This document shows positions 1-64,000 of a stretch of DNA of 64,000 nt, piece after piece; positions within the stretch are counted from its first letter, which is position 1; each line of letters starts with the position of its first letter. The stretch spans positions 3,423,801-3,487,800 of the forward strand of contig OZ316891.1 of NCBI GenBank assembly GCA_973895155.1. Direction: 5' to 3'. The notes under the pieces are model-generated. The model was not told the origin of the DNA, searched no databases, and was given only the letters and a program-made list of their open reading frames with translations. This stretch comes from Marsupella aquatica (Eukaryota > Plantae > Marchantiophyta). Position numbers and translations under genes: made by a program.

Positions 1-82
1 GACCTTATAGTAATCATGTTAGTGCTCGCTGACGACGTTTCAAGTCAAGTGCGTTCCCTTCATGTGTGGGATGGGATTGCAG

Positions 83-18958: not shown

Positions 18959-19311
18959 CTCCCATCCGGGGCCGGGTATGTGGTTCCTTCTGGACTATAT
19001 ATGCCTATGTTAGCAGTAAAGAGCTCATTATCTGTATTGCGCTCCGAATTGACAGTTCTTCCAAGTAGAGTCTTTCACATCTGCCTGTCCGCTCATGTCA
19101 AGGACCCGGGTCTACAAGGCAACCAAAAATCTGCCTCAGAGAGTAGAAGCTTCAGGCACGATATGACCTTGGTGTTGTAGTGGCCTAGTTAATTTCTTTC
19201 AGAGTTTCGGGTACTTGAGAGAGTTTTCCAGAGATTTGTGCTGTCTCCTTGCATACTTTGACAAACTCACAAACGCATTTGGATCCAGAGAAAGTTCAAG
19301 GCAAGTAAGTT

Positions 19312-39359: not shown

Positions 39360-40246
39360 ACATAATCTGACCAATCATCCTCCGCTTCTTGTTCTGCACA
39401 ATCAACACAATCCACATTAAATGCAGTCAAACTAGCAGGTTAATAATAAAAGCCATATACAAACAATGCACACTCAATCTAATAGTTAGTACAGGGAATT
39501 ACCTGTAGCTTCAATATCTTCACCTCAATGGAATCCTTAAATAGATATAAACCGTACCACAGTGACTGGTTTTGTCTGCCCAATTATACGATGTGCCCGG
39601 TCCACAGCTTGGTCTTCCACACAGGGATTCCATCACTCGTCTACTAGAATTACATGATTTGCGCAAGTTATGTTGAGACCTGTAGATGTTGCCATCAAGG
39701 AAAGCATAATGATGCTCACCTACACAGTCCATAGAAAACATTGGTCATTACAATTATAATGTGAAAGTATACATGAATTAGCTGTCTGAAAATGGACAAA
39801 TTTGACTCACCTCAGGGGTCCTACTGAACATGTGAAGCACCTTGTCTCTCTTTTTTGGGGCCATTGACCCATCAATCCTTCCGAACTGAAGGCCAGCCTT
39901 TGTGAGGTCTGGCTCAAGCAAGTCCAGACATTTTGTCCATTGCAAAAACACAAGAGCCTTCTCTCTTGGATGACATTGTTCCTTGGTGAGTGGCTTTGTG
40001 TATCTTTTGGGATACCCTTCAAGTATGTCATGACTGCATCAAATTTGGCAGAAGAGGTTGCCGTTGGAATGGTTTGAATAAACTTCAATCCATCTAGGAC
40101 GTCACCATCACCCTTGGTGCTTGACAAGTCTACGTTCTTGTCGAGTTTTGCAACGCCCACCTTTCTCCTACAATTGGGGAACTTGCAAGTGAAGATTTCC
40201 TTCCGCCCTCAAACCGCGCAAGACCCACAGTTAAAGTGGCCACAGC
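39360..40246 (-). pseudogene. RAD5/RAD16-like SNF2-RING helicase pseudogene, 3' part (RING C-half + HELICc)
   Basis: CGHFNCGSC, SSAKFDAVM, EKALVFLQWTKCLDLLE...[43 protein letters not shown]; in-frame stops and a frameshift. Confidence 0.85.
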
Positions 40247-40279
40247 CACTAGTAGAAACCGGGGGGTATTTAGACCCCA

Positions 40280-40640
40280 TTAAACGACTATTCAATACCG
40301 TATAGGACTTGGAAACGACTGGGAAGGACTCTAGTCCTTTATAGGACTGCGAGTCGTATGTTTTGTTACTATAATCAACTGAGTCCTTTATAGAACTGGT
40401 TTATAAGTCGTTTAATAGACTGGATTTTCAGTCTATTTTAGTCTTTGTGTGGGTAGCTTTGGTGAGTCTTTTTCAGTCTTTTATGGGCTGCGATGGTGAG
40501 TCGTTGGGAACAACTCAAAAGGTTATGGAGGGTAGTCTTTAAATATACTTTGTGGGTTTATAAAATGACTAAAGTAGACACTTTGTGGGGGTTTATAAAA
40601 CGACTAAAGTAGACACTTTGTGGGGTATGTACAAGTCTTT
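40280..40640. repeat. CACTA subterminal repeats (GACT/AGTC motifs, short tandem duplications)
   Basis: Dense GACT/AGTC motifs in both orientations; similar cluster at about 57110-57270. Confidence 0.7.
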
Positions 40641-41147
40641 CATGTCAACTGGAAATGAATGATGAAGACCCCACTATACTACTTGGAATGAACTCACTCT
40701 TGTGCACAAATAACACATTTCATTCATGTTTTATTGTGTACTTGGAATGAACTCACTCTATAAGGTCACCATTCACCATGTTAACATTAGAACCTCACAC
40801 AAATTTTCAGAAAGCCATCTTCTATACCATGTACACTAATATGAATTCACAGATTCAAACATCATAGACTACAAAGAAGGTCACAAAGCATTCGTCTATA
40901 CCATACACACTAATACTGAATTGATACAAAACAGATTCAAGTATCATAGACAATCACCATAGAGCCATAGTTTGACATCAATCACTTGTTTCATACATAC
41001 AGAATTCAGAAATATCAATGTCACACACAACGGCTCCTTCATCCTCTTTACCAAATGGAAAAATTGGTACAGATATTTCTTGGATTTTTCCAAGGCAATG
41101 TCAAAATGTAACACAATTCACATGATTCTATCTACACTTGTATTCAG

Positions 41148-44100
41148 TCACTGCAGACTAACACACTCTGATGGCCAGAGCACAAGAGATCCTACTGCAT
41201 CTGCAATTATTTCTTGAGGTGGATCATCGTCTCTATTCGGAAATGGCAAATTACAATCAGATACAATCATTGTAGTCAACAACACTACTACATGGTCATC
41301 CGGGACCACTTTGCCATGGAATTTAGCATGATCCGGTCGCAAAATGCCTGTACCCACACATACCTGCGAGTCATTCTCCCATGATAGAAGATTATGGACT
41401 GGCTCTGCTGTGGCTATCACCTCCACCTTACCCTGGCTGTTTTTCTTGGCTTTCCTGGGTGGCTTATACATGACATTATTCATACCTTGGTTGCGAGTCA
41501 TGACTTTGGCACGAGTGTTTTGTGCTGGTGATCGAGAATTGGCTACACTCTTCTTCAAAGAATCTGCATCCATATTTGACACTTCCGATTGTGTAGCAGG
41601 ATTTCCCTGCGACATCATCTCAGTATCTGCTAACATTGTACTTGCTTCAATTGAAGCATCTACAATCTTACTTGCATCCAATGTTGCTCCCAAGTTTCGA
41701 CGTCGCTTCACCCTGCTCCCACTTGGTTGAGAGTCTGTCAACTCTGCATCAACTACAATTCAATGCATTGTCCAACATAAGTGAATCACTCATCACATGT
41801 GCGCCATGTACATGTCACCATCCACAAAGTTGTCACTATCTCCTTACCATTATGAACAGCCTTCTTCCCCTTCTTTGCCATTGCCATATCCTCCATGTCT
41901 GCTTCTGCTGATCAATAAACAGACCACAAGATTCAAGTTCAATCTATTAACCACTGAATTGTTTCTCAACAATGGTAGGAGAGGAATTTAAAGCATCAGC
42001 TTACCTGATACCTCCTTGGCTATGGTCACTGAGGCACTGGGCACATCTTTTTCATTGCTCTTTGAATCACCTGATACATCAATCATGATGTCACTTCAAT
42101 TCCCAGTTTATCCAACCAATTCTTACAGAAAAGATTACCTCCAACCGGCTTAAGCTTCACAAAACTCCATGCACTTTTCAAATGTAATGTACTGGATCAT
42201 AGCAGGTTACCTGTCTCAGCAACCTTTTTGCCATTCTGCTTACCGATTACAGGGTCCAGGTTCTCTGCCTCCACTCTTCCTGCATTCAAACCATTCACTC
42301 AATTCATGAAAACTTACTTCTAACATTTGAACATAGGACACAATGAACAATGGGCCTCTCTTGTTTCAAAATCCTCATTGCATACCTGTGTCAGATTTGC
42401 CAATTCCCTTTTTTGTTAACAAGGGCACACTTTGTACAATGTTGCCCTCATTGTTTGGTTGGGAACCACCCAATTTTTCAATCACAAGCTTGAAATTAGA
42501 TTCCACTGATGCAAGAAGGTTCGCTACAGATGCCTCCACAATATCCAAACGATCAGCCAATTTACTTTCCACTCGAGGGAGTCCACACTCTAATGACTTC
42601 AACCGTTCAGACATCTTTGTGAGAGTTGTAACAGTTCCCTGTCATAACACAGTTTACATATCTCAGATAATTGTCCCCAAGAACTGGTTGCTTACTTCCT
42701 ACTACAATTCTTTCTGATGCTCAAGGCCAAATAGTCACAGAACATATAGAATTACAACATAATCACCTGTTTGGAAGTCACACTTGTCACCTCACTCCTT
42801 TGTTTCATGAACTCCTCTCTCACTTCTTGTGCTGATGGTTCTTCACCTGTCAATTTCTTCTGCAGTCCACATCAACATACATATGAATGAAACCAAGTGT
42901 TGATTGTCAATGAAAATGTAATAATGGTAGCAAGATGATAAGTTTGAGGCTTACTATTAGGCATGTCACTGCCTTACCAATTGTTCTTTCACTGGAGCAT
43001 AACTTCCTCTCCCAGCCTGTGAAAGGTGTTTCACTTTGCCTCGAGCATTTGACATCAGTTCACTCTTGCTCTGTCCAGCCTCCGACATGAACCCTTTGAT
43101 TAACCGTGTCCATTGATCCAGTTCCAATGATGGGGGTGGTGGCATTCTCCTGTTAGAACCATTGTCTATCCACATCCTTTTCAACCTATGCCTCTCTTGT
43201 TTCAAAATCCTCATTGCATAATCTGATATGCAATCTTCAACTGGGCCCTTACCATCATTACCAACATAGTCCCACCGTTCAAGAATGTCCTTGCAGATAG
43301 CAGCCCAATCAGCTTTGTTCTGACTCCTAAACTCTGTAATGCTCAAATCTAACCAACGCAATACTTCTCCTCTTAGGTCAGAATGCCAACGGTTCTTACC
43401 ATCACATGTGGGAGTTATCCAACCTTCGGAATTCACTTCTACTTTACCAAATTTGTTACTGTCTCCTGCCTTGGTACTCCCTGAAGCGCTACTAGGTGTC
43501 CCTCCACGGCCTGGTGTCCCCCCACGGCCTGGGGTCCCTCCACGGCCTGATCTCCCCCCACGGCCTGGATTGCATTGTCCAAACCTCCCTGGAGTCCCTG
43601 CACATTTACAGGATCCATTTACAGTCACTTACATTAGGTAAGTATGAATCATAAATCCTGCTGCCAAATATACACTGGACTTCAGAGCAATTCTGCAATG
43701 ACCAAGTTACCTCTCCCTTGGCGCATAGATGGTTCTGGACCACCTGTCCTATTGCTTTGTCTTGATGAATTAGGGCCGTTTCTCCCGCCTGTGAATGATT
43801 GCCGCCTATCTGAACGTGGATGGCCTTTGTTGTTTTCGTGATTGTCCCAATCAGAGTCTGCATACCAACAGGTACATGCCACACTCATGGACCTGTAAGA
43901 TAAACTCTTTGCCCTAGCTACACATCAGATAAGTCCATATTGAGCTAAATCTCTACTACCATCACAAAATCACTAGCACAAGGCACTTACTTGTCCAATC
44001 ATCCTCCTCACCTGTCCATTGCCCTCTGTACCCGTCTCTACCACGCTCTGGGTGTTCATATTCATCCCATCCATCTTCTGCTCCATCATAGTCATCATCA

Positions 44101-44333
44101 TAATTATCAGGCGTCCCTTGCCAATAACTCTGGCTCCTTCTAGGGTATGGATTATGTGATTTCTCTCTAGCTGCCCACCTACCTGGGACTTGATGAGGGC
44201 CCTGTGCATCCTGCACAGGTGCATTTTTCTGTGAGCCCCCTGCATCTGGGTCTCCATCCATATCCAATCTTTCCTCTTCACCCCACTCTCCAAGCCCCAT
44301 GTCTGTCTCCATGTCATCACCCTCTTCCCCCAT
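41148..44333 (-). CDS. CACTA TnpA-like (ORF2, Ptta/En/Spm Transposase_24-like) multi-exon gene
   Basis: Exon ORFs 43962-44333, 43682-43888, 42966-43628 (W..L...F.SE..Q.KSE..S.ARGK.KH...AGRGSY), 42375-42614, 41148-41741 (C-terminal GTG..FHG..VP....VV...LPFP...DAVGSLVLWP); GRGGTP repeats. Exact exon borders not all resolved. Confidence 0.75.
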
Positions 44334-44510
44334 AGCTTCTGCACAGCACCCACAACCAAACAGGGAGAATCAGCACACTAAATTCAAAGTATCAATCAAT
44401 TTCATGCATATCCAACTATCCTAAACATCATTCCAGGCAGCAATTCCCGTTCTGTGACTCTGTGCAGGTAGTCATCCTCAACCTCATACTTGCCAATCGC
44501 CAGCTGTTGC

Positions 44511-47500
44511 CTATTGCAAATCATCAACCTCATCATATTCCATTTGCCCAGGTTCATCATATGTCTCTCTCAATGTTAAGGGGATGTAGTCAGTCCCTGC
44601 CCGAGTTGGAAGTACAGTCTCATGACTAGGATGCTCGAATGCAGCATGGTCATCCAAACTGAACTCTACTTTACTTCCATCCATCCGCCTGTTCCGTGCT
44701 TGGCTATGGCATACCACCCTCCAGCCATGTGACTCCTCCACATCTGCAAAGAAAGCCTGTTCAACTTGGCTAGGGAAAACAAAAGGCTCAGACCATTCTG
44801 GTACTCTGGACCTAAAATTGGCCAACAAGAACCCATCATGATCACGCTTCATGGTGGCCCTTGGTCTCTGCCACTCTGATTTCACCCATGATCCCTTCAT
44901 CAATATCACTGGGACACTTGTGTTACCATAATTCAACACCCAAATGTCGGTCAACTCCCCCACGTAACCCATCTTCATCCACCCCCTCTGTTCTTCAGAG
45001 GTTCTCTGCTCAAACACAGAAATCAAACCACAATCATATGATACACAATGGTCACCCTGCTCATCCCTCACTCGATAATGATTTCCATAAGCTCTCATCC
45101 GTTTGTAGGTCAGAATAGACAATCGTGGTGGCACAGATAGAAGATACAAATCCTTCTCCATATCTGGGTGATGTCTACTATGCTCTCGAATTGTCACCCG
45201 AATCCACTGCTCGAACTGTGGGAAGGGATCCTGCTGCCCAGAGTGTGCAGCTTTTTGCATATCATATTCCCTGCAATATGAGGTACAGGCATAGTTAGGT
45301 CTAAACAACACATGACAACCTAAGATCACCCTTGGAATAGACAAGAAGCATCACAACAAAGGCAAGTCAATTCAATCACTCACCTCCACCATGGTTGCAT
45401 AGGCTCTGTGTTTGCCAGCACATATGAATGAGCCTTGTCTCGAATCGCAACAGGCAGCTGAACAACACGTCCCACACCTTCAACAACCTCGCCACTCACT
45501 CCATCATCTTCACCAGATTTCCAAACTCTTGTCATAGCTTCACCAGACCCAGCCATGTACTCTGTTAGGAATCCCAACGTCTCATCCTTAATGTACCCCA
45601 ATGCCATGGAAGCCTCTGGCCTGTAGTATGTTCTCACATGACCTTTCAACAACTTCATGTATCGCTCCATAGGGTACATCCATCTGGTATTGACTGGCCC
45701 ATACTGCCCTAGCTCTTCTACCACATGGATTAGGAGATGAGTCATAACATCAAAGAAAGCAGGGGGGAAGTATATCTCCAAGTCACAGAGGACATAAGCA
45801 GCATCCTGCTTCAACTGCTCCAATCCTTGGGGATCCCACACTTTCACACATATACGGCGAAATACATTGCACAGTCGAAGAATGACATTACGGACTGGTT
45901 TCTGCATGAGACCTCTGAGGCATAGGGGCAGAATGTGCTGCATCAACACATGGTAGTCATGTGTTTTCATACTGCCAAGTTTATTCTTTGTAATATGCTT
46001 CTTGAAGGCACCAGCATAGCCAGAGGGCACTTTCAGACAGCTCAATCTATACAAGAATGTCTTCCATTCATCCTGTGTGCACACATAGGGAGCTTGGAAC
46101 TTGAGAAGTACATTGGGATTGCTTGCATGGGGCTTCAACCAAAGGTGAGGGCGAATCCCCTTCTGTTGCATATCAGCTCGAACTGCTCCTGTATCTTTCT
46201 CACCCGACAAGAACTTCAGCAAGCTCTCACAAATATTTTTCTCAATGTGCATGACGTCCACATTGTGTTTGCTGGGCTCGAATTCCTGCACTCCACAAAG
46301 CAAAGAATTCAACAACAGAAACACTAATTAACCACATAGGAGGATTGTAACCAACATCAATCCACCATTGCTCCAATCTAAAATTGCAATCATACAGGGG
46401 CTGGAGGCTAAGTACATTACCCTCCAGTACTCCAACTCCAAGTCCATCAAGGTCTGTCTTTTCACACCGTGTTTCACCACTGGATCCTCAGGTTCTCGAT
46501 CAGTGGCACTTCTCTTGTCCCAATCAGCCTTCCTGGCTGCCCACCTCAGGACTTGCTCTCTGGTGACCCTCTGTGGTGGGCCACGAAGCTCTGTTTTGTT
46601 GTTGAAGTGTGCAATTTGAGACCGTGTGTGCCTGTAAGGATGATCAACAGGCAGATACCTTCTATGCCCCTGAAATTTCATACTGTGCAGGGCATGCGAC
46701 CACTCACTTGTCACATTTTTCCCACATGGTGTGCACCCCACATAGCCCTTTGTCACTCGTCCAGATATGATGCCATGGCCTGGGTAATCTGCTATATCCA
46801 GCAAACAAATTGCATGCAGTCTAAAGGGGCTGGGTCGAAGAAGCCCCTTCAGAACATCATGGGTTAACACCCCTTCTATCCACAAAGTCTTCCACTCTTC
46901 CACTGCTGGAGCCAACATGATATCTATGAATTGCTCGGTCACAGAAGCTGGTCCAGGGATTAACAGCACCATCATGACAAAAAACCTCTTTGTAGTCATC
47001 CATGGGGGAAGGTTGTAATTTAGCAGCGTAACCGGCCAACATGAATAACGGTTGTTTTTGTCTCCAAATGGGTTTACTCCATCCAGTGATAGACCAAATC
47101 GAAAGTTCCGCTTCTCTGCAGCAAACTGTGGCCACCTCTCATCAACAAATTTCCAATGGTTGGAATCTCCAATGTGACGCTGCAGGCCATCACTGCTCTT
47201 GTTATCAGGAGTCCATGTCATCAGCTTGGAAATGGCAGGGCATCTAAACAGACGTTGTAGTCTAGGAATGAGAGGAAAATGACGAAGAACCTTGGCAGGG
47301 TGTGTACATTTCCCTACATTCTTGTACCTGTGCTTACCACAATGAGGGCATGTCAATTTATCTGCATGCTCTTTGCGAAAGAGAACACACCCATCAGGGC
47401 ATGCGTCAATAGACACATAGTTCAGCCCAAGGTTAGACATCAATTTCCTAGCCTCGTACATATTTTTTGGAATTGAATTACCATCTGGTAACACATTTCG

Positions 47501-48211
47501 GCGCAGGAAGGTCAACAACTCTGTCACAAATATATTGGGAACATTGTGATTGCCACAGATGTTCAACAACAACACGACAAAACCCAGCTTGGAGCAGTTC
47601 GACCCCTCGTAGATAGGAATGCAAGCTTCTTTGATGTGTTTTGGGCCCCCAAACACCCACTCCCTCTCTGCTGCACCTTCCCCAATGTCAAAGTCAGGTT
47701 CAGCTTGGCCGTCGCCAATGTGTGGCTGCGGTTCATTGTCCTCTTCTGATTCCACTGTGTCGTAAAAAGCATCAAGGTCTTCAAAAATCTCTTGAACCAT
47801 TCTTGGGACATCCATCCCACCGTCCTCAGTGACTGCCTCTGCATCTCCATCTTGGTCATCCACGTTCTCATGTTGGACCCCAGGACCATCCTCTGCACAG
47901 TCTATGTCCTGCTCTACGTAGTCTCTACGCCTAGCTGTATTAGAATCCACAAAGTCAGCTCTCCACTCTTCATCAGAGGAGTCTTCTTCTGCTGGTACAT
48001 TCCAAACCCTCCACCGAGGGTGCCTTTCATGCCGCAGCAGGTGAAGGTGCACAGTGTTCAAACTCAATGACTTGAATCCTTGGCACTGTGTGCATGGGCA
48101 TCTCATCCTCCTACTCCTACCTTGGGCGGCCCGGGCTTGTTCACGCATCCACAATTTAGAATCATGATGCCTAATCCTAAATGGGTTGTGAAGAGGCAAC
48201 CTTGGAGCCAT
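44511..48211 (-). CDS. CACTA TNP2/TnpD transposase, 1150 aa; exons 48211-46421, 46285-45384, 45270-44511
   Basis: MRCPCTQC, IDACPDGC, RFGLSLDGVNPF, YSCWPV, YNLPPW, DYPG, HNVDVMHIEKNICES, FPPAFFDVMTHL, WMYPMERY, EPFVFPSQVEQAFF. GT-AG introns join an open frame with no stops. Confidence 0.93.
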
Positions 48212-48538
48212 CACTATACACACGCACTCAGCACCCTGTCATTTTATTATGCAAGTGAAAAATACACTTCCTGTTAAGGATTTCACCCCCGACTGTACTT
48301 GCCAAAATACGTAACGTTCCAAAAAAACCAAAAAACAAAAAATATAGGTGCCTGAGTCATGTACCTATTCTCAAGTGAATGAGACAAAATTCCTAAATGT
48401 TTGAGGATGTCAACTCCTCCGCTGTCCTCACATGTACTGCCTCTGCACGTACATCCATGACCATATCAGAGTCCAATCATGTATAGTCATAGACACAGGT
48501 GCCAGGTGCGAGACCGGGTGTGAGATGTCCTCATCTTA

Positions 48539-49072
48539 CTACCACATCAAATACGGATACCAATCTTGTTGTCGATGCCACTCAGCCCTGAGGTACTCAG
48601 GCATGTACATTAAGTCATCAAGGTCTAAACCCTGCTCATGCCATGGTGGTCTTCGATCCGTGCCTACAAGCAGTGGCAGCAGTGCCCTCCATGGTGCACA
48701 TGTTGCTACCAAGTCCCTCCACTGGGTACTAATTAGTCTATATTTGCAGATATCTTGTGCGCCAGACACCACAAGAACCCTCGGCCAGACATGTGTAAGA
48801 ACTATATCATCTGCCAAATCAGGCAACAAGGAACCACCTACAGCATCGTGCTTGTCTAACTCATCTGCTGAAAAGTAAATGTCCTCTTCCGACTGTGCAT
48901 CCTCATTCACCACAGCATTCACAACACATCCAAGGTCTGCAGGCATTATCTCGGATGGAGCTACACTCTGTCTGGTTACCAATCCACACAAGTAAGCCCA
49001 AGCAGTAGCCATGCACGATGCAACCCGTAGGAGGACCCTACACAGGGCCTGACGGTCTGGAAGAGGCAGCAT
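48539..49072 (-). CDS. CACTA cargo: F-box-like protein lacking a substrate-binding domain
   Basis: LLPDLADDIVLTHVWPRV...CKYRLISTQWRDLV matches the F-box consensus (LP.LPDD......RV....R.VS..WR.LV); start codon uncertain. Confidence 0.55.
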   Translation of the reverse strand: MLPLPDRQALCRVLLRVASCMATAWAYLCGLVTRQSVAPSEIMPADLGCVVNAVVNEDAQSEEDIYFSADELDKHDAVGGSLLPDLADDIVLTHVWPRVLVVSGAQDICKYRLISTQWRDLVATCAPWRALLPLLVGTDRRPPWHEQGLDLDDLMYMPEYLRAEWHRQQDWYPYLMW

Positions 49073-49248
49073 ACCCACCAAAGTCTTCAGCCAAACAGAG
49101 CCCAGCAAGTAGATTCACAGTCACACCCCACGCAGCAGGAAACAACAATCACTTCAACTGCGACCAACCATGACAAGATGAGTTAGTTCAAGGATCACAT
49201 TTATTACAAAATTGTGATTTATACAAAAATATGAGGGACTCCTACTCC

Positions 49249-50097
49249 TCACTCTCTCCCACCTTTGCTAAGCATACATCTCCGCTGAATCTTGGAGGGC
49301 CAGGCCTCAAAAATATCAAAGTCCCAAGCATTCTGTCGCTTCCCTCTAGCTGCTGATTCCAGAAGCCAATCAGGGGAAAGCACCCAAAGATTGTTGTTCA
49401 TGACAAAATCACGCACTGTTGTCTTAAAGATTTTTCTGCATATTTTCATGTATGACAGACCTACAACATGAGTGGAGGTTTCTGTTAGACTCTCCTCCAC
49501 TGTCCCACCTAGCTCAACAACTATAGACTTGTACAGTCTGCACTTAGTCTCCCCAATTCCTTCTTCTGCAAATACCACACTGAACCCCTTCATAATGGTA
49601 TTTCTCTCCTTGCCATGCTCATTCAATATAGCATCTGCACGCATAGGATGGTGTCCTATGTTGACAACAGGTCCATATTGGACAGAAGCAAAGTTGGGTT
49701 TCTCTGCCGCTGCTTCATAGGCTTCCTTTTCAGCCAAAGCCTCTGCAGTGGCCTCCTCACTCTCCCACAACTCATATTGCTCAGTACTCTGTACACACCT
49801 ATGTTTAACAGAATCGGTCAGCCAAGAGACTTCAACTACTTTTAGACCTTGGTTGGTAATGGCAGAATCAATGAAGGACCATGACCACTTGTTCATCACA
49901 TCCAGCCATGTCCCCGCAACAACATGTGTAGTCTGTGGAGTGATGTCCTTGACTTCAGTCCCATGGAACTCTGAGAATCGTTTTTGTACGATTGGCCAAC
50001 TCACTTGGGTGAACCCATAGTGGCCAGGAATCAAAATGGCTTTGATTCCAGCCAACAGAGGCGGGTGGTCAACATTTGTACGTTTCCTAGAGGCCAT
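49249..50097 (-). CDS. CACTA cargo: tandem BRCT-domain protein (DNA polymerase lambda-like BRCT)
   Basis: Two repeats, each with G....THVV...W(L)..S: TTHVVAG...VEVSWLTDS and LGGTVEESLTETSTHVVG...LSPDWLLES; intact intronless ORF. Confidence 0.8.
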   Translation of the reverse strand: MASRKRTNVDHPPLLAGIKAILIPGHYGFTQVSWPIVQKRFSEFHGTEVKDITPQTTHVVAGTWLDVMNKWSWSFIDSAITNQGLKVVEVSWLTDSVKHRCVQSTEQYELWESEEATAEALAEKEAYEAAAEKPNFASVQYGPVVNIGHHPMRADAILNEHGKERNTIMKGFSVVFAEEGIGETKCRLYKSIVVELGGTVEESLTETSTHVVGLSYMKICRKIFKTTVRDFVMNNNLWVLSPDWLLESAARGKRQNAWDFDIFEAWPSKIQRRCMLSKGGRE

Positions 50098-50697
50098 GTA
50101 CACACGGGCCACCTAATCACTGCAGACCGGAAGATAATGCGTTCACCTGATAATCGGAGGGCCCTTAAAATGCTGCGTTTATAACTTGGTCCAGTCCAGT
50201 CGTCTGGTGAGTCTCTGCTCCGATTCCAAACGGGAGAAATATTGGGACAAACGTACTAGACACCTGCAAGCATGCACTTCATAGTTTGAATATGTGCCTT
50301 CACAATATTGAAGGTGACAAGTGCAATTGTTTTGTGATGCCACATACAGATGTTTCGTATGGGGGCAGACATTCAATGAGAATACAAAATGTTGGTACAC
50401 TTTAAGGGAATTCTCGCAAATTAAATAGCCTTGTAACTTATATGCTCATAATGAGAAGTCCTGATTTAATTTAAGCAGTGTCATGTAAGTCGTGATCAAA
50501 ATGATTGCAGAGTTAAAAAAGTTCCTAGAAGGCTTAAGGGGAGATTTTGAAGGCATGTACCCAGGAACAAGTAATGAACTTAGGGTACTTGTTGCCTAAG
50601 CATCCTCTCCTACAGAGGTCCTTCTTCTCAAAATTGGAATGTCTGCAATCTCCAAGGTATCCACATCAGGTGCACTATGCATGTACATTATTCAGGT

Positions 50698-51378
50698 TCA
50701 AAGCCAAGAAATGTGATCTCTCATGGGAGTGTGCAAAGTAGGATCTATGGCATGGCGATGACAATAGAAGATCCATCGATCAACACCATGTGCAGAGTGA
50801 TCATAGATGTGTCTGTCACAAGCATAGCCTTCTGCTTGACGCTCCTTCAAACAATGAAAGTGCCACATGGTGGGACACCTAACACAGTGGACTATGTCCA
50901 CCCAGAAATCTTCATCGTGCTGACCACATGCCTTGCACTTATGAAGTGGGCAAGCTGTGGCAAGATCGGGCAAACATGAAAAACAAAAGAACCTCACACA
51001 ATATCTGTCAGGGCATTTCCTAACAAGTGGTGGAGCATCAACAGAGCCCTCATAAGACCCCAACTTCCCACACTGTGCACACTTAGCCTGCTTCTCCAAA
51101 CAATCAGTGCACATCCAGCCTCCTTGGTGTGCTGACGGGAGGCCCACCCCTGGACAGTTGTTTTCTGCAGCAAGGTCAGACTCCGGGTTGAGGTGGAAAT
51201 GCCTCATGCAAGGGCCCTCACATATGGCTAAGTCACCACCATCGTCACAAATGGCACAACAATGAGCTGCCTTCTGGAAAATCTGACTTGCGGAGAAGTT
51301 ACTACCATCTGGCCCAACTACACCTGTGTTGCTCACCTCTGTCCCCCGCTTCTTGGCTCGGATTTTAGGGCGTGCCAT
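50698..51378 (-). CDS. CACTA cargo: stand-alone EDM2-type composite PHD-finger protein, 226 aa
   Basis: CAICDDGGDLAICEGPCMRHFH...CPLHKCKAC...CVRCPTMWHFHCL...FYCHRHAIDPTLHTPMRDH follows the EDM2 PHD pattern including the terminal YCxxHxIDxxLxTPxRDH; basic N-terminus MARPKIRAKKR. Confidence 0.85.
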   Translation of the reverse strand: MARPKIRAKKRGTEVSNTGVVGPDGSNFSASQIFQKAAHCCAICDDGGDLAICEGPCMRHFHLNPESDLAAENNCPGVGLPSAHQGGWMCTDCLEKQAKCAQCGKLGSYEGSVDAPPLVRKCPDRYCVRFFCFSCLPDLATACPLHKCKACGQHDEDFWVDIVHCVRCPTMWHFHCLKERQAEGYACDRHIYDHSAHGVDRWIFYCHRHAIDPTLHTPMRDHISWL

Positions 51379-52047
51379 GCCTACGCATGAGACAGATAGT
51401 ACAATTTAGCAGAGTGCACAGACAATACAATTTAGTGCAGTGTACAAAAAGTACAGTGTAGCATATAGACTAGAGTGGCAATTGCTACTGCAATGAAATG
51501 TTCACACACATGTGCAGAGTAGACATACTTTTTGGTTTGTTGAGCCCACACTAAAAACTGATCCCCTCGTACAATAGCTCCACCTACACCTCAATTTTGT
51601 GGCTATGATTCACCAAAGGAGATCTGCAACAAGATTTAATGCATTTGAATCACATATAACAGTCGTGACATGTAAAACAGGCATTTTTTGAACAGGATTG
51701 GTATCAAGCAGTGTGATCAGGGTTGTAATTTATACATCCTAAATAGGCTATGATAGTGAATGAGACAAATAAGTTAGGCATAAATCACTTTTTCCAGGTT
51801 ATCACATGGCCCATTAATTCCAGTCTTTGAAAGGAGACTTTTAAGTGAGCTTGCTAGCCTCTTAAATTAGGATATTGTACTTAGTGCAGCCATAATAGGA
51901 TAAGTTATGTACTGTTGACCCTAAACCCTGGACCCAAAATTGGTCATAATTCAAAATCTTAAGTAAATATCCTCTCTGTTCAAGTCAAAGTGTTAAGTTA
52001 TAGGTCAATGGTCTCTGGTTTGTGCATGCGGTGTGACAAGTGGTCCT

Positions 52048-52497
52048 CTAGAGCGTGTGATCCAAACATGTGTAGACACCAAAGTGACCGGTGGTGGGGT
52101 CTGGGAGGGCAGGACAAGTGACATTGCCAGGCACACTGCAGGATGGCGAGTGGTTCCAGATGATACATTGTGCTCTGTGAAAAAACCGACATCCAAGAGA
52201 ACGGTCATCCAACTCTAGGCCAGAAGCCCTACAGGCAGGACAGTCATATTGGCAACTGTGCACACACCCTTGGGCCCTAATTTGTGGCGGGTCATGTACA
52301 AGAGACAGAAATACCAAGGATGTTGGGAAGGGTGGAGAAGCAGGTACAGGCCGACTGTAGTTGTTCCTGGCAACAACTGGGTACTCAAAGTACCATGCAG
52401 ACTGGGCTGGAAGGATCCCAAGTCTGACATACTCAAGGCGCAACATCTCTGCCTTGCGTGCAAGCCGCACATGTTCAGCGTTGCGGGTCCTCACCAT
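52048..52497 (-). CDS. CACTA cargo: possible Cys/His-rich small protein, 149 aa
   Basis: ATG-initiated ORF co-oriented with other cargo; CVHSCQYDCPAC...CRFFHRAQC...HSPSC; no family recognised. Confidence 0.3.
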   Translation of the reverse strand: MVRTRNAEHVRLARKAEMLRLEYVRLGILPAQSAWYFEYPVVARNNYSRPVPASPPFPTSLVFLSLVHDPPQIRAQGCVHSCQYDCPACRASGLELDDRSLGCRFFHRAQCIIWNHSPSCSVPGNVTCPALPDPTTGHFGVYTCLDHTL

Positions 52498-55400
52498 AAG
52501 TGTTGCTTTTGTGGAGATGTCGTGTGTTCACGTCCTCTGATAAGCACCTTCGATCAACAAGGTGAGCAGGAGCTGTACTTGCCTCACCAACAGCAACCAA
52601 CCTTAAATTATCAGTTCCCACTCACTGTGTCATTCCATTGGTTCCAGCTAGGGGTCACAGTGTAAACATAGCATGAAACACTCCTAATCAACTTGCTTAC
52701 AAACTACAATATCCAGAAAGAGTGAAAGTCTCACCCTCCAGTGAGCAGCAGAGAGGTAGTTCACTAGATGTGTTGATGTGCAGTTAAACCTCCACTATTG
52801 CTTACTTCTGGTGTATGCTGCTCAGAAGAAGACATATTAGTAGCAGCAAATTGCAAATAATGGCCATAAGCAAACCGTGAGAGTTTGCAAAATGCTACGA
52901 CAAATCCATCACAGCAGTGCTCCACAGGAATGAAACCAAGCAAAATTTGGTGACCTCGGCCAATGACAAGGCCAATGTAGTGAACAATCCTTGACCGATC
53001 ATGATATGGATTGGAATTACAATTAGTCAGCTCTTCTTCTTTGTTTTCTAACTCTGGGGGAAATGAGCATGACCAGGGAATTCTCTGAGAAATAGAAGTG
53101 CACAGGGAAAATGAAATTGGCTCATTCAGCTCTGCAAGATGGACCATTGCAGCATACTTGGACAGTTGTTCCGCAATACATAAAATACCCTAACTTACAT
53201 GCAATTGATACAATCTGCTTCTGTTGGCTGTCCTACAGCTCATGGCAGTGCCGTTGGGACAGGGTAAGTGAATATTGCCATAGCTGAAGCACATTGAGCT
53301 TGCAGCAACAAGTGAAGGAGCATGGCCAAAAGCAGAAAAGACAGACAGGTTTTACAAGAAGAAACTAACAACCGCCAATCTGCTCAAATCCGCTGCATAG
53401 ATCAAACCCTCCGAACTACACAGCCCTCCTTTGAAAACAATCCAATGTGCTTTGGCTGGTGGATGACAAGGACTGGGAGAAGAGGAAACGTCTGCACAAT
53501 CAATCCAAATGACGGTACACAGAGACCAGGCACAGAGAGGATTTGTGCTTAGACAAAAACCACAAATTGTAGCATGGGCGCCATAGCATTCTAGACAAAG
53601 CACAAAACATAGAATCTATGAATCTATGACTCATGGACTAACAAAATGATTGGGTAGCATGGCAAAAGGAAAGACAAATTTCAAAATGACAACATGGCCC
53701 GTTTCCACCATTCATTTGACGTTGCTAGGTGTCCGTAAGATGACTGACCCACAAACAATCCCGACAACCTCATCCGACAGACTGCTTTTCTAGTGTGAAG
53801 AAATACATGATTACAAGCAACACCACGCCTCATCCAAGCAGGGAATTGAAAACATAACCATGTCATTCCTATATTGGACAGTGTCCTCTGCCATTGCACT
53901 GCATAGTTGTTATTCCATGTTGGTTGTCAACAGTTTGTTGGCTTGCCACAACCTAGATAGAACAATAAAATATTGTACATGAATACAACAAGAAAAATCT
54001 GCATACAGCGATGGCCCGGTCACTTGAGGAAAAAACAAAACTAAGAAGGCAGGCACACGGGCAACCGAGAAAAAAAGCTAGTGGCGCCTCGCGGAGAATC
54101 CAGAATGGTAATGCCCTCGCCCAGAAGCTTGGGAAACAAAAGAGAAAAAAGCAAAAACGAGCTACCGACCACCGTCTTGACCAGGCCTGCCACAAGGTAT
54201 GGCTGGAGGCTGTGGTCCCCCCCTCAGTAAAGAAAAGGATGCAGGTTGGAGCACGGGGCACAAGGCATGTTTGGATCCAGGAGGAGCAAAACAGTAATGT
54301 CAAGCAGGAAGTGTGGAGAGACCAATCAGTAAACAAAAATAGGGGAGAACAAACATACATCAGCAGCAACAGGAAACGAGAAAGTTGATTTAGGAGGGAT
54401 TGTAGGGAGAGAGCTTTTGGTGGGCTCGGCTGTGCGTGAAATATCGGGAGATAGATGCGCGAGAGAGTGAGGAGGGTGGCAAGCGGAAGACGGGTTGGGA
54501 CTGGACCCTTGGTGCCGGTGGGTAATATATGGGGTTTCAGCAGACTTGGGGCCAGTTTGAGGAGGATTGAGAAGCGCGCACCCCACGTTCTTGGGTGGTG
54601 GTTGGGTGGGGTTTTGTTTGATTGAAGAAGAAATCACCATTCTCTTCTAGAAGAAAGAAAATCACAGGAAATAGTGGACGGGAGAACAAGGCATGTAATA
54701 GAGAACAACAAGGCATGTAATAGAGACAGTGCGCAGCTCAGCTCCGAGGTCACACTTTACGATGCACAGGGGGTCCTTGGTTGCACGTAGGAGAAGGACT
54801 GAATCACTGTGGCTGCTCTTCCGTACTATCGAAGCACCCGGCTGGCAGCTCCGCAAACACTGATCGTAGCTACAATCTCTACACCGTTGATTGAAGAGCA
54901 GCTGCAGCACAGTAAGGAGCTCCCACAGCCTCCCTCTTCAAAGCTCGGTTGACCTAGCTCTACGATCGACGGAGCATGGGCGCCAGACAAAGCACAAACT
55001 GTACCATGGAGCTGGAGAAAAACACAGAGTAATTGAAGCCTAACAATACCCTTCTCAGCTCCTGATTGAATGAGGAAAAACACATTACAAGACACATTGC
55101 AGGCAATAGGATTTTAACAATGAAGTCTCGCCTGTGCTGACAGAATACCTGCTTACAGCCACGCGTTGCTCATCCTCCCACAGTTCGGTGGCACACTATC
55201 CAGATGGCATGACGCATGCCTTAACTTATGACGATTTGCGCAGCTCAAATCAAGTAGGTTGTCCCCACAAAAAGACAGAGGACAACAAAGAAAAGCAATG
55301 TAGCCGTGATGTCTTACCAGCCCTGACAATGGGAGCTTCAAAGGCGGTGCACTATGGCTGAAATGGCAGCACGCTGCTCGAACACTAAAGCAACACAAAA

Positions 55401-55819
55401 CTTGGACTCTCACCTTATGCAACTCCTGGCTTGTATTCAGCTGGCGTTGGCCCACTCTAAGCTCCTGCGCCGCTCCGACTGCCAGTCGTTCTGTAGACGG
55501 TCTGTATCCTCCCTGACTGCAGCTCCTCCCCGCCCCCAGCTCGTCACCCGCGTCTTCTCCCCAATTTGTGGTGAGCTCCTCCTCGACCACAGCACCCTAA
55601 ACTGCTTTGCCCAGCCTCTGATGGCCTTCACGTTGTTACCGATTGTCGCTCCCCACAAAGTCCACAATCCATAAACCAGGCAGATAGTGCGCCCGTAGAA
55701 CAGATGCAACCCGCATGCAGCTTCACCAGCTCAATGGCAGCTCAACAGCTTAAGGGTGCAGCAAAAGGGCGTTGAATAGGTTGTCTCACCTCACCCTTCG
55801 AGAGCCGGTCATTGCAGCA

Positions 55820-56035
55820 TCCCTAAACTCCCGATCCCTCTTCTCGGATTCCACAGAGCCGACCACAAGAAAATGGGAACACTAAACCTCACTGTAGAGA
55901 CGTTCCCACCAAGATTACACGGAAAACCTTGCTCCGATCCCTAAGCTCCCAATCCCATCGAGAGAACACGATAAAACCTTGCTCCAATCCCTAAACTCCC
56001 GATCCCACCAAGAGAACACAATAAACCTTGCTCCG
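55820..56035. repeat. About 50-bp tandem repeat (AAACCTTGCTCC.ATCCCTAA.CTCCC.ATCCC) in the CACTA 5' region
   Basis: Units start near 55923, 55973 and 56023, with a partial unit at 55820. Confidence 0.75.
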
Positions 56036-57303
56036 CAAGTTGGGAATGTGGCGGGATCCCTAAACACATCAACAACCTGCTAAGTGTAAGCAAAGTTGCA
56101 TAACCGGCTTGTTCCCTTCCAACGGTCGCGCGACTCGGGTGTCCAAACGGTACTGCAAGCGGTACAGGCCCCTAGCTTGGGATACCCTTACCAAAGTCAC
56201 TGGTGTTGCCGACATGGTAACGGCAAGATTATCCTGACCCTCCATAAACCCCCTCCATTCACTCAAGTGTTGTGAGTGACAACTTAGTGTAGTGTCGCTA
56301 AACAAATACTTTGGCCTTAGCAAATATCTGTGGTGATCGAACTTCATTAAACCAAACCTCTTTTGGTCACAAATAAGGCCATTTAATGAGTGATGCCCCT
56401 TGTCATCACCCTCTTAATTTATGCAATTACCCCTCCTGAACACAATTGAACGTTGTCCAAATTGCCTACCCTCATGAATAATTTGTCAATTATCTTTCCC
56501 GACATATATGATGTCAATGGACATGATGGGGAACATGATGTCAATGGACATGATGCCAACGATCCAATGGTTCCTAAACCCCCATCCCCTTAACATGCAA
56601 CCCCCGACCCTTGACATCAAACCCCCCTAAACCCCCTTTAGTGAAAACCCAGCCACCCCCTAGCCTTGACATATAAACCCCCTAAACGTCTTCACAACTC
56701 GACTGTGGCCAGACTATCTTTGCAATGCCAAGGGCCATTTTTAGAGTGCATGCCGCTTGCAAGCTCAGGCTCTCAAGATCCTCCCAAGGCAGCAAACAAG
56801 TTAGGGTCCCTAAACATGTTCCTTTACCCTAAACCATTGCGTCACTATTTCAATCGAGTGTTCTTTGCCTGGACAACCCCCTAACCCTAAACCCACACCC
56901 CCTTGAGACCGGTACAAATCTACCTTTGTGCATCTTGGCCTTTTATTGATGGAGTTAGTAATCGATCCCTCCGTAGTCCACCCTCCATGAACCTCACTCC
57001 AAAACCTTTTTTGTCACAAATAAGGCCATTTATTGAGTTATGCCCCTTGCTATCTCCCTCTTTACAGAATTACCCCTCCTCAACATAAGTGAACATTACC
57101 CATGATGTGCTAGACTATTCACCGTTCACAAAGTAGCAAGGTTACTTCTCATAGTCTTTTAGTGAACCATAAAACACTAATAGTCTTTTGTAGTCTTCAA
57201 CAAAACTGGTGCAATGGGTGCGAGTCGTTTCAAGTATGGAAAAAGGACTTAGTGAGCTTAGTCCTATAAGGTATGGTCTAAATTGCCCCGGTTTCTACTA
57301 GTG

Positions 57304-57925
57304 AGCGAGAAATCTGTATTGGACCTCCAACATAATTTGACTGCACAAACAAACGTCCAATGTTACCATTATGAACACCATGCAGGTAGGAACAATCGCT
57401 CGACCAAATTGCCATTCGTACCCCAATACCCCACTCATACCCCAATACCCCACCGCACTTAGAGCTAAGATACTTACCTTGCATTCTGTACAAGCACTTT
57501 GCATGTTGGCTGATTGGAGATCTGCCAATAATTTGATTTGATCATGTTGATTGAGAACATCTCTTAGGAGCGACGCCGTCAGAGTTCTTCTTATCTTCAG
57601 TTGCTTGCAGGAAAGAAAGGCTAGGGTGCACTGCATATTGACGTAAACGGAGAAGTACGGACAACATATTTTGATCGGGAGCCTCCTCGATGCCCTCTAT
57701 ATATTTCTACAACAGGAGAAAGAATACAAGAAAATTAAGTAGGTTAGGATCTTAGATGGGATGCAAACTGAACAACATTGGGTACGTAGTCACTTCCAAA
57801 GCGCCTTACCCTAAATATTGTAGCAATCTGCTCCTGCATATCAAAATAGGCATCACGTTCTGCTTCAGTCCTCCATTCCACTATTACCACCTGAGAGTGC
57901 TTTACCGGCAACTGAAGAATGCCTG
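57304..57925 (-). pseudogene. RAD5/RAD16-like SNF2-RING helicase pseudogene, 5' part (end of SNF2_N + RING N-half)
   Basis: ILQLPVKHSQVVIVEWRTEAERDAY, NMLSVLLRLRQYAVHPSL, CTEC, GPIQISR; joins 40243 in frame after removing the CACTA. Confidence 0.85.
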
Positions 57926-60816: not shown

Positions 60817-61370
60817 GAGAAATTTGGTGTCGGGGCCGCTAGAGTCACCGTGTTATCCCCTCGGGCTTGCTGGAGTGGCGCCGAGTTGCTTGGCGCCTGT
60901 TGAGTCCTACCTCGCGACCATTGATTCAAAGGAGGGTGAGCTTCCTTGTCTTTGGAGCTAATATTCACCGCATTTACCACGGATCGTACTCAGAGAGGTG
61001 GTGCTACCGATGGTGGAGATCGACTTGGCTGAGCCGAGGTAGTGTTGGTGCGATCACAAATGGGTTGGTGCCAGTTGCGGCTGGTGGAGGCGCCATGAGA
61101 TTCAAGTAGTCCTTGGGGAAGTCGAGTGATGTTAGGATAGGAGTCTCACTTGTTTGAGCAGGGCCAAACTGACAATTGATGGAGGCTTGAACCTGGGTGG
61201 GAATATGGTCGTAATGGTGTGACTGCAAGTCTATTGTGCCCGGGAGATGGTAAACCTTGTCCGAAAGCCGAAGAAGTGCTTCCCAAAATCCGACGTACTT
61301 CTCGTCGACAAAGAAGTATTTGCTGTTTTTGTCGACTTGGCAAAGCTCACTCTGAAAAGGGAGGGCAAAG

Positions 61371-61716
61371 GGTCAATTGCAAGCTTGAGAGGGGCAAAAA
61401 GGATATCCAGTTTCTCCACCAAAAGGATTCTAGTCCTTCCCAATTTACAAGGGGTGGACAAGGTGTTACACCAAATGGCTAGGATTAGTTTGTTGAGATT
61501 GGATGGTGAGATCTTGCATGCCAAGTCTTTGGAAGTGTGTCCAGGCTTTTAGGAAGTCCCAATCTTCTTGGAAGTGTGCACAACAATTTTGGAAGTGTGT
61601 CAAACCTTTATGGAAGTGGTGTTCAACTAAATCTTTATGATCTTTGAGTCCTTTTTCTCTCCTTTTTGAGCTAATCCTTTTTGCATCCTTTTCCCCCCTC
61701 AATCTTGCAATTGACC
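61371..61716 (+). mobile_element. MITE family A, diverged subfamily, 346 bp, TSD AAAG
   Basis: AAAG|GGTCAATTGCAAGCTTGAG ... CTCAATCTTGCAATTGACC|AAAG; body alignable with 11666-12034. Confidence 0.88.
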
Positions 61717-62731
61717 AAAGTCGTCGTTATAGTGATTTCGGCCGGCTAAACGAATGGCTCTCTCGTAAGCTCGTTTGGTCTCGTATTGGCGCGGGTTGAC
61801 TTTGGCTAAGGACTTGGCTAAGTGACTTCCTACGAATAGGAATTGCAACCAACATCAAAGGGCCAAACTAGACAATATCGTGACAGACATCCAGGAGTGA
61901 CGGTGGGCAACTAAGGAGGGACAAAGTGGCTGAGGTCGAAGCTAGTGCACGGAATGGAGTGTGAGTGTAATGCGAGAGAATGGCCCTCCTTTTATACTCT
62001 GAGGGCTCATCGTCCGACCGGCCCCTCCTCCCTTCCAATAGGCCGAGATTTTCACGCTCATAGTGTACTAGCCACTCGCGGGTCCGGTTCAGAGCGTGTC
62101 AGCAGCCACCTCCAAGAATTTGTTATACGGACCCAAGTGTCCCCTTACACGCTCGTAACCTGGGAGTATGAATGACGCTCCGCCACCATCCCGAACGTAA
62201 ATGCCTCTTATTAACTAATGATTCCCTAGTCATAAGTACTACCTACTTAGTGTCGTTATGCTAATAACTACGACCTACGGTGCCCCTAAAGGGGCGCGCT
62301 AAGCACGACTAGGCCGAATCAATCATTAACCGCCGTGCTGGTAGCGTCACATAATCTAAAGTATAAGTCTTTGGGTTGGATGAACCTTACAGCTCCAGAC
62401 CACTCAAAGAACAACAACATAAACCTAATTTGGACCGGTATGTCATACCATATCCACTCACAATCGTCTGGGCGAATGGCCCTCTTGTTGATCATCCCTG
62501 TTGCAGCTAAAATAATACAAAGATTTTCTAAACCCATAGCTTCATTAATTTCAATAGCATTCTGGGATACTACTTCTATTCCGTGAATACACTTTAGAAA
62601 TTCACGCTCACCTTCTTAAGTTGTTCCAACTTCTTCTTGTGCACCGGATCAGCTAGTGCGCATGCCTCCTTCAATAATTTAGCAACCATGGCCGCCTCAT
62701 CTCTCAAGCTCTGTACTTCCAGATCCCAGGC

Positions 62732-63100
62732 GGTCAAGTGCAAGCTAGAGGGGTACTGAAAGGATCTCCATTTTCTCCACCAAAAGGACATAGGTCCTTG
62801 GTAAAAGCAATCACTAGAGGACAAAAAGACCAAAATGTTACATGGAATGGCCAAGATTGTTTTGGTGAGATTGAAAGGTAAGATCTTGCATGCCAAATCT
62901 TTGGAAGTGTGTCCACATATTTCGGAATTTAAGAAGAGTGCCCAATCTTTTTGGAAGTGTGCACAATCTTTTTGGAAGTGTGCCCAACCTTTTTGGGAGT
63001 GTGCTCAGCTAAATCTTAATGACATTTATACTCCTTTCACTCTCCTTTTTGAGCTAGTCCTTGGGGACTCCTTTGGTACCCCTCTAGCTTGCTTTTGACC
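62732..63100 (+). mobile_element. MITE family A, 369 bp, flanks do not form a TSD
   Basis: Near-identical to 11666-12034; left flank AGGC, right flank TCTA. Confidence 0.9.
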
Positions 63101-64000
63101 TCTAGCATTTGAGACTTTGAAGCTTTCCTTATATGTCCTTCAAAGATCGATAAAAGGACTTGTCACGCAACGAGTCACATCATTTCAGGACTCGAAAGGA
63201 CTCTAAAACTTGCATTTTAGACAATGAAATTTTACCAAGGCATGCATACTAATAGAATAATCTTATATTTGAAAACTCAAATATTGACACACACTAAACC
63301 TTTATGTATAGGACAAAAATAATCAGTAATTTTGGCTTATTTAGGGCCATCAATAATAGGATCCCTTAAAAAAGATAAAAACTTGATTTATCTACATGGT
63401 GAGGTAGGTTACACCATGTAAAATAGTCTTGTGAAAAAATTAGACTTAAATGTCTTGAGATAAAATCATGATGAAGCTTTTTCCATGTTACAAAAGTCAT
63501 TTTTCACTAAAAAAACATGTTTTTGAGTCCTGAAAGTGGTTCCTGTGAGGTACACCCAATTGTGAATGAGGCCATTTCAGCTTCTAACATCTTTGAAACT
63601 TCCTTTGTTGAGTCCGTTGTTGAAGACCCTAGCATCTGTGGTCCAAGGACCTTGTCTGCATTCACTTGATACATAGTTTCAATCATTCTAGTGCATTGTA
63701 AACAACAGAATAGATTCAATCATTTAATGTTTTTGACTGATGACTATAATGTCCTATAAAACTAGGCCGGAATGATAGATAGTTCTCTATCATTTTATTG
63801 TTAAAAAGTTAGACTCCTATTTAAGTAATTTCCCCAATCACATTAATTGACTTGGTTTTGCAGTGTCTAGTGGGCTTGCACAATAGTGTTAATTATGCAC
63901 TCTTGTGTACATAGCATTGTGTGTGTATTATGAATGTTGTTTTATGTCTTGAATGGTGTATATCAATGTGAGTTGTGTATGGATGTGTGTACTCATGAAA

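Follow-up and report, generated by a model that had tools for sequence, protein, structure and literature searches.

Why does a CACTA transposon in the liverwort Marsupella aquatica carry a row of small genes that resemble pieces of host nuclear proteins? The window that we analysed (64,000 nucleotides; contig OZ316891.1, positions 3,423,801 to 3,487,800 of the forward strand) had been read in an original prediction as holding an element whose cargo comprises an EDM2-type PHD reader, a Pol-lambda-like tandem BRCT protein and an F-box-only protein. The question is whether these genes are the debris of one copy or a selected part of the element, and what they may do there.

The element is intact. 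A perfect 18-bp terminal inverted repeat (TIR) starting CACTA lies at both ends, a 3-bp target-site duplication (AGC) occupies 40244-40246 and 57304-57306, and the interior holds a spliced TNP2-type transposase, which confirms the assignment to CACTA. Its parts and its immediate surroundings, in window coordinates, are as follows:

40247..57303, minus strand, whole CACTA/EnSpm element, 17,057 bp, intact, all genes on the minus strand
57286..57303, minus strand, 5' TIR, begins CACTA
52498..57285, no strand, 5' non-coding or variable region, summed contig depth below the rest of the element
44511..48211, minus strand, TnpD/TNP2 transposase, exons 46421-48211, about 45384-46285 and 44511-45270
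41151..44369, minus strand, probable TnpA-like spliced gene, Transposase_24 E 0.002, under cut-off
40247..40264, plus strand, 3' TIR, with short subterminal repeats beyond it as far as about 40625
39540..39945, minus strand, broken host SNF2-type helicase fragment, Helicase_C E 9.5e-9, beside the insertion site

The transposase matches Transposase_21 (E 1.3e-59), DUF4218 (E 1.9e-27), DUF4216 and Transpos_assoc. Its exons join at GT-AG sites, in six splice combinations, into an open frame of 1,145-1,150 aa that carries C(2)C and H(3-4)H motifs; the TNP2 gene is intact as predicted once spliced, but in three exons and not as a single ORF. The probable TnpA-like gene, with open stretches at 43965-44369, 42969-43628, 42378-42641 and 41151-41759, includes the sub-cut-off Transposase_24 match. 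Short repeats lie near the element ends. The 5' region has a summed depth of about 18-27 times that of the flank; none of the 13 open frames tested in it matched Pfam under E 0.04, and no Rfam match was found. Host pseudogenes riddled with stops had been described nearby, and the flanking Helicase_C fragment does contain an internal stop (E 9.5e-9 with X at that one stop; a second piece, E 0.012). A wider pair of CACTA-like ends at 5822 and 58882 was rejected as a single element because the target duplications do not match.

Upstream of TNP2, on the same minus strand, lie four ATG-started intronless ORFs:

52048..52497, minus strand, ORF D, 149 aa, Cys/His-rich, undescribed family
50698..51378, minus strand, ORF C, 226 aa, EDM2-type PHD module standing alone, its N-terminus basic and H3-tail-like
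49249..50097, minus strand, ORF B, 282 aa, two BRCT domains, PF00533 E 8.6e-14 in two stretches
48539..49072, minus strand, ORF A, 177 aa, acidic patch and F-box-like motif

Open intronless ORFs thus lie between the 5' TIR and TNP2, as had been claimed, about 4.8 kb from the TIR and not adjoining it. Four ORFs of at least 149 aa occurred in none of 500 second-order resamples of 48212-52600 (mean 0.19, maximum 2). No chromatin- or DNA-modifying enzyme family was found among the Pfam matches of A, B, C and D, and D has no assigned family.

Judged by profile comparison, ORF C is an EDM2-type, atypical 2.5-finger PHD module with a C-terminal motif. Pfam models of NSD-type PHD fingers match it under their cut-offs (E 1e-5 to 6e-3). 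Its five relatives are 38-82% identical to it. The ORF C profile scores 97.6 bits on L002 over profile positions 33-215, as against 45.1 bits on NSD2 over positions 12-170 only, which bears out the EDM2-type label. We take L002 to be EDM2-type from its RFD plus PHD and NPPF motif, a name based on architecture. A 21-residue deletion and a ligand changed from H to C are common to all six C-type proteins, which a 100/100 branch sets apart from three EDM2-type sequences. Within the family, 24 of 38 Cys/His positions are invariant, as against 29 of 188 other residues. The RFD and methyltransferase-like (ELP) domains are absent from ORF C and its five relatives, which stop right after the module. 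The lack of a catalytic partner had been read as the architecture of decoys or adaptors, but PHD-only EDM2-like proteins also occur outside the C family (L001, L003 and L005), so such a lack is not in itself the mark of a decoy. Acidic residues before the first Cys, present in AIRE and L002, are missing from all six C-type proteins, so their histone reading may differ from that of EDM2. Four of the six begin with A-R-x-K-x-x-A/S-x-K, a spacing like that of a histone H3 tail; the first 20 residues of ORF C had no PDB match. A metagenome scan returned nine loci, eight EDM2-type and one an unrelated multi-PHD protein, none of them from this element.

For ORF B, the tandem BRCT part of the earlier description stood and the Pol lambda part could not be borne out. 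PF00533 matches two stretches, and the two halves resemble each other (E 2e-6), but no Pol lambda chain appeared among its PDB matches to E 10. The TdT BRCT matched repeat 2 at E 0.15, ranking below ligase 4 (E 0.005) and BRCA1. Pol X enzymes are known with a single BRCT domain, and ORF B may resemble plant Pol lambda. Relatives of ORF B (P0006/P0020) are 61% identical to it. ORF A has two relatives, 51-56% identical over the full length, and has an F-box-like motif too weak to confirm the F-box label it had been given: PF00646 reaches E 0.06-0.1 in ORF A and 0.0011 in relative P0018, all under cut-off (13-19.3 bits against 20.5 in 4/4 sequences tested). ORF A had no F-box match in PDB, no substrate-binding domain was seen in it, and its structure model has too little confidence to be usable (pLDDT 35.8).

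ORF D adds a protein family without a known fold. It had no match in Pfam, PHROG or PDB and no likeness to ORF C, and Foldseek found nothing below E 1.4 for its model (pLDDT 66.5; best Z 4.3). Eight full-length relatives (28-55% identity) share invariant C78, H80, C86 and C89, and ORF D is probably metal-binding; three of 11 matches were dropped (P0012, P0014 and P0015; two repetitive, one a partial match of 5,907 aa). We note that no other cargo ORF has as large a family as this one, which the original prediction left unexplained.

The cargo extends well beyond a single copy. Its four ORFs are equally represented in runs X1, X2, X3 and X5. In X2 and X3, with contigs of two organisms, the median summed depth of the cargo is 209 and 236 times that of the flank, and the ratio of cargo to transposase median summed bin depth is 1.32 and 0.80; neither measure is a copy number. 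In X1, TNP2, A, B and C are all covered by near-identical contigs at a depth of about 1,800. Runs X8, X10 and X11, in which the cargo appeared only as short low-depth pieces, were left out of the counts. All four ORFs have full-length diverged relatives (28-82% identity), mostly with an identical start and a similar end, on short contigs without gene context; among the contigs listed, none bridges a cargo ORF and TNP2. Run X6 has high-depth contigs inside C and TNP2 (2,107 and up to 3,527) and mostly less than 20 in the spacers, which weakly suggests a relative that is both diverged and repeated.

Such abundance could also arise if captured host pieces or retrocopies were open only through recent amplification, their distant relatives being host genes. 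CACTA elements are reported to capture host DNA, most of which decays (PMC13317346), the near-identical X1 contigs point to a recent burst, and deletions in A and D do occur. Some copies have a 43-nt skip in ORF A (depth 8,173 in X3 and 42.7 in X5), read as a deletion because it lacks GT-AG ends, others a 123-nt skip in A (X1 depth 195) or a 772-nt deletion reaching into D; a 91-nt skip in B (X1 depth 1,799) is ambiguous in nature. Yet the four ORFs are complete with conserved starts, and the best-supported variants listed carry signs of purifying selection in place of the frequent frameshifts that decay would bring. Synonymous changes make up 10 of 20 listed cargo substitutions, as against 22% expected (p 0.005), in a small test on the best-supported 40 of 1,187 and 40 of 288 substitutions; both substitutions listed in ORF B are non-synonymous. 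One of 10 listed indel clusters falls inside the ORFs, although these fill 57% of the stretch (p 0.003), again a small test, on the best-supported 12 of 140 and 12 of 24 indels. ORF C is only 27-33% identical to L002, with 36-82% identity inside its own family, and the X6 pattern weakly points the same way. Of the outcomes that were to refute the original prediction, confinement to one copy, frequent frameshifts and a lack of excess synonymous change did not materialise. Passive carriage is unlikely on this evidence; the cassette is probably family-wide and under selection, and not the debris of one copy.

The same data bear on whether the four genes belong together. They might have been acquired separately, with roles that are unrelated or benefit the host, and not form one working module. 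Accessory genes of Plavaka elements are described as moving between transposon families (10.1101/2025.02.11.637652), the cargo families differ in depth and size (D eight, C five, A two, B one cluster), and in X6 C is high against low B and D bins (19.2 and 13.5). The searches varied in sensitivity, however, so that family sizes cannot be compared, and all four ORFs point the same way, sit close together and have equal representation in four runs; we regard separate acquisition as improbable. Observed/expected CpG is 0.25-0.38 in the cargo and 0.28-0.35 in TNP2, unlike two host-like genes (0.78 and 0.85), so the cargo appears to have long shared the element's methylation history. The low CpG content also means that no escape from CG methylation is seen in the element.

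EDM2 is reported to bind H3K9me2 and to alter transposon silencing, and a complex containing it to secure full-length transcripts through heterochromatin (PMC7529245, PMC9910501, PMC3632883). We put at about even the chance that the four accessory genes are old and selected and act as enzyme-free adaptors or decoys on host nuclear machinery, keeping the element expressed and mobile. By binding chromatin, or proteins that partner EDM2 in the host, ORF C would change how the element is silenced or how full-length transcripts are processed there. Where excision or insertion leaves a break, ORF B would dock on proteins of the DNA-damage response. ORF A would bind SKP1, either occupying SCF complexes or using a short conserved tail to recruit one target. 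ORF D may be a metal-binding partner or a DNA-binding unit. The cargo genes probably derive from host genes, as intronless copies made long ago.

The evidence of conservation would also fit a selected cassette of transposition helpers, in which C would hold the transposase complex at one type of chromatin and so choose insertion sites, B would aid repair and silencing would be untouched. Accessory factors are reported to modulate integration preference as well as silencing (PMC13547354). The element likely has a TnpA-like gene, and TnpA is already anti-silencing in Arabidopsis Spm (10.64898/2026.08.24.746577); CG depletion indicates that the element was methylated. Against such helpers stand the F-box-like gene, which has no obvious targeting role, and the donor EDM2, which acts on silencing and RNA processing. 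This account is somewhat unlikely, though the strongest of the competitors to adaptors or decoys. A bolder form of the adaptor reading is unlikely in its entirety: a virus-like effector cassette in which an EDM2-derived reader with its own H3-tail mimic, a BRCT break-repair adaptor, an SCF decoy and a new metal-binding fold would together rewire host silencing, repair and protein turnover without an enzyme.

Accessory cassettes in giant CACTA-group elements are already known, from red algal Plavaka and from fungal elements with TET. The giant Plavaka elements (EnSpm/CACTA superfamily; PAG1-3) are likewise abundant, 17-19 kb long and equipped with a conserved, chromatin-linked multi-gene cassette; PAG2 and PAG3 are enzyme-like (DNA methylase, SET, 2OG oxygenase), whereas no catalytic domain was found in the cargo here, and the text of that account does not mention PHD, BRCT or F-box (10.1101/2025.02.11.637652). 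Fungal EnSpm and other DNA transposons with TET/JBP carry an accessory gene proposed to aid escape from silencing, but this is one enzyme (PMC12730594), as opposed to four non-enzymatic modules. VANDAL elements, of the Mutator-like superfamily, are also plant DNA transposons with separate accessory genes, VANC and KIU, some of them conserved and made of host domains, and VANC is a sequence-specific DNA binder with a demethylating effect that has been shown (PMC10398659, PMC13317346); no homology of VANC or KIU to the cargo proteins was seen. En/Spm belongs to the same superfamily, and the present element has an intact TnpD and a TnpA-like region; TnpA derives from the transposase, whereas the cargo genes come in addition and resemble host genes, and the main text of a survey of 962 Spm proteins names other accessory domains and no PHD, BRCT or F-box (10.64898/2026.08.24.746577). 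ORF C shares a collinear 2.5-finger PHD module and the C-terminal motif with EDM2 of the ASI1-AIPP1-EDM2 complex (PMC7529245, PMC9910501), but lacks its RFD and methyltransferase-like domain and has the 21-residue deletion and a new basic N-terminus. Pack-CACTA elements similarly enclose host-derived sequence between CACTA ends (PMC13317346), but are non-autonomous and carry recent host fragments, in contrast to the whole, old and constrained cargo here; the intact transposase and whole ORFs with distant relatives argue against that identity. The combination had been called undescribed, and we found no account of such an enzyme-free set in the literature covered, with Repbase and most subscription journals outside its scope.

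The counter-measures known from transposons are either DNA-binding factors (VANC, TnpA) or enzymes (TET, SET). Conserved bare interaction modules, if true, would be a different strategy, closer to that of viral effectors, and one of the modules would derive from a host protein that regulates transposon chromatin. Because the genes are small and intronless, each is directly testable, and their study would bear on how CACTA families have become very abundant in some plant genomes.

A scan for inverted ends starting with CACTA delimited a CACTA element of 17,057 bp, with an 18-bp perfect terminal inverted repeat at 40247 and 57303 and AGC flanking both ends; on the left it is flanked by a fragment of a broken SNF2-type helicase. 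Gene types mark the host as a plant, perhaps one of a seed-free lineage. The transposase gene has three exons on the minus strand and Pfam matches to Transposase_21, DUF4218, DUF4216 and Transpos_assoc; joining the exons via natural GT-AG sites gives an open frame of 1,145-1,150 amino acids. The open stretches downstream, among which a weak Transposase_24 match falls, are probably a TnpA-like gene. Upstream, four intronless cargo ORFs run head to tail into the transposase gene:

44511-48211, minus strand, TNP2 (TnpD), CACTA transposase
48539-49072, minus strand, ORF A, 177 amino acids
49249-50097, minus strand, ORF B, 282 amino acids
50698-51378, minus strand, ORF C, 226 amino acids
52048-52497, minus strand, ORF D, 149 amino acids

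The original prediction of open, intronless ORFs on the transposase strand is borne out; none of 500 resampled sequences contained as many ORFs as the cargo stretch. The A-TNP2 spacer (48374-48388) and the D-C spacer (51755-51769) contain the same 15-bp motif (E 0.001), possibly a shared regulatory or binding site. Telomere-like CCCTAAA words occur inside tandem repeats in the element's 5' region (55904-56035 and 56587-56700).

Part of 48000-53000 was present in 11 of the 13 sequencing runs listed, and at least half of its words in four. In runs X2 and X3, median summed depth in cargo bins, which is not a copy number, was 1.32 and 0.80 times that in TNP2 bins and more than 200 times that of the flank. 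This excludes a one-copy capture; cargo confined to this copy would have counted against the original prediction. Run X1 gave near-identical contigs at a depth of ~1,800 in TNP2, A, B and C; in X5, which carries a third organism label, the cargo was covered at a low depth equal to that of the rest of the element. High depth in X6 fell within C, A and conserved parts of TNP2, with loose ends inside C, weakly hinting at a diverged repeated relative. None of the contigs listed bridged a cargo ORF and TNP2. The cargo is common to the whole family.

Searches restricted to near-length proteins found five full-length relatives of C (38-82% identity), two of A (51-56%) and a single cluster of two for B (61%); for D, 8 of 11 matches were full-length relatives (28-55%). 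Start positions are largely shared between the cargo ORFs and these proteins. The 15 relatives checked (14 Logan proteins and one JGI 'hypothetical protein') lie on contigs of 0.9-2.9 kb.

ORF C encodes an EDM2-type PHD protein, as predicted: its family profile scored 97.6 bits, C-terminal motif included, on a metagenome protein of EDM2 architecture (L002; a frame of 1,305 residues containing RFD, PHD fingers and an NPPF motif), versus 45.1 bits on NSD2 at the same search size, with that motif unmatched. A 21-residue deletion and a change from His to Cys are common to the six C-type proteins, in which 24 of 38 Cys/His positions are invariant. These proteins are 25-33% identical to three EDM2-type rows, from which a 100/100 branch splits them in an unrooted nine-row tree with two long branches. 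They have no acidic residues before the first Cys; AIRE and L002 do, and such residues bind H3K4. In four of the six the N-terminus reads A-R-x-K-x-x-A/S-x-K, spaced like the H3 tail, at a shuffle probability of 0.006-0.02 each in a test made after the pattern was spotted. The pattern is missing from two members, two of those that have it are 82% identical, and residue 8 is never Arg; alternatively, this basic start could be a plain nuclear localisation signal. Metagenome contigs also carry PHD-only EDM2-like proteins (L001:541-1662, L003 and L005) lacking RFD or a methyltransferase-like domain, an independent short form.

For ORF B, predicted to be a Pol-lambda-like tandem BRCT protein, the two BRCT repeats were found; the Pol lambda label is unproven because PDB matches were weak, ligase 4 and BRCA1 ranking first and TdT reaching E 0.15. 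ORF A is F-box-like, scoring under the cut-off in all four sequences tested, and has an acidic patch and a C-terminal tail that are both conserved. A variant of A with a 43-nt deletion (48864-48906), common in run X5, keeps the F-box-like part within a 151-codon open stretch. ORF D has invariant Cys/His residues; a search with its medium-confidence predicted structure found no fold match.

Among the rows with the best support in much longer tables, 10 of 20 cargo substitutions were synonymous versus 22% expected (p 0.005; A 2/4, B 0/2, C 7/13, D 1/1), as were five of eight in TNP2 exon 1. Sixteen indel rows from such tables for 48212-52600 formed ten clusters, one of them inside an ORF (p 0.003). 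Counted against selection, in some copies A carries a deletion of 43 or 123 nt, or a 772-nt deletion reaches into D. A 91-nt skip in B, found at high depth in X1, would also count against it, although an intact contig of equal depth spans the site. CpG depletion is the same in cargo and transposase. The cassette is very probably under some selection; that it is passive we hold improbable.

Elsewhere, the window contains:

23-3646, plus strand, spliced glycosyl hydrolase family 3 host gene (one exon matches at E 1.9e-7)
5822 and 58882, two ends from a second CACTA-like family that share a 13-bp inverted match and have similar subterminal blocks
11666-15063 and 61369-63104, LTR-like repeat of 250-380 bp, several direct and inverted copies surrounding ORFs for coiled-coil and proline-rich proteins
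18702-20266 and 28793-30619, pair of diverged copies of a duplicated gene, 10 kb apart, encoding acidic repeats of ~95 residues
33982-35484, minus strand, intronless MFS transporter ORF, ~474 amino acids from Met (closest to PDB monocarboxylate transporters, E 7e-18)

The ends at 5822 and 58882 have no matching target duplication. Two frames tested from the ORFs among the LTR-like repeats gave no Pfam match below E 0.15, and the acidic-repeat pair gave no convincing one. The transporter ORF (GC 51%, slight CpG depletion), which we take to look fungal, is possibly horizontally transferred or foreign DNA.

Accessory cassettes in giant CACTA-group elements are already known, being conserved in red algae (10.1101/2025.02.11.637652) and fungi (PMC12730594); the present set is real and well conserved. 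VANC (PMC10398659) and TnpA (10.64898/2026.08.24.746577) are proven anti-silencers, co-opted host domains are reported for Arabidopsis EN/SPM accessory proteins (PMC13547354), and the capture of transposon domains by nematode F-box genes is the subject of PMC12062965. PHD, BRCT and F-box, present or candidate here, went unmentioned in the comparison texts searched for them. The literature searched gave no description of this cassette; supplements of the Spm protein survey may bear on novelty.

The anatomy of the cargo fits accessory genes retained for the element's benefit. EDM2 binds H3K9me2 and, with ASI1 and AIPP1, yields full-length transcripts across heterochromatin (PMC7529245, PMC9910501), and it alters transposon silencing (PMC7529245, PMC9910501, PMC3632883). 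The bare PHD module of C could compete with or redirect the EDM2-ASI1-AIPP1 complex. BRCT domains are known to bind repair proteins, and F-boxes to bind SKP1. There is about an even chance that the cargo proteins act as adaptors or decoys that would keep the element expressed and mobile; that they serve targeting and help transposition we judge unlikely, and that they are genes with unrelated roles rather improbable.
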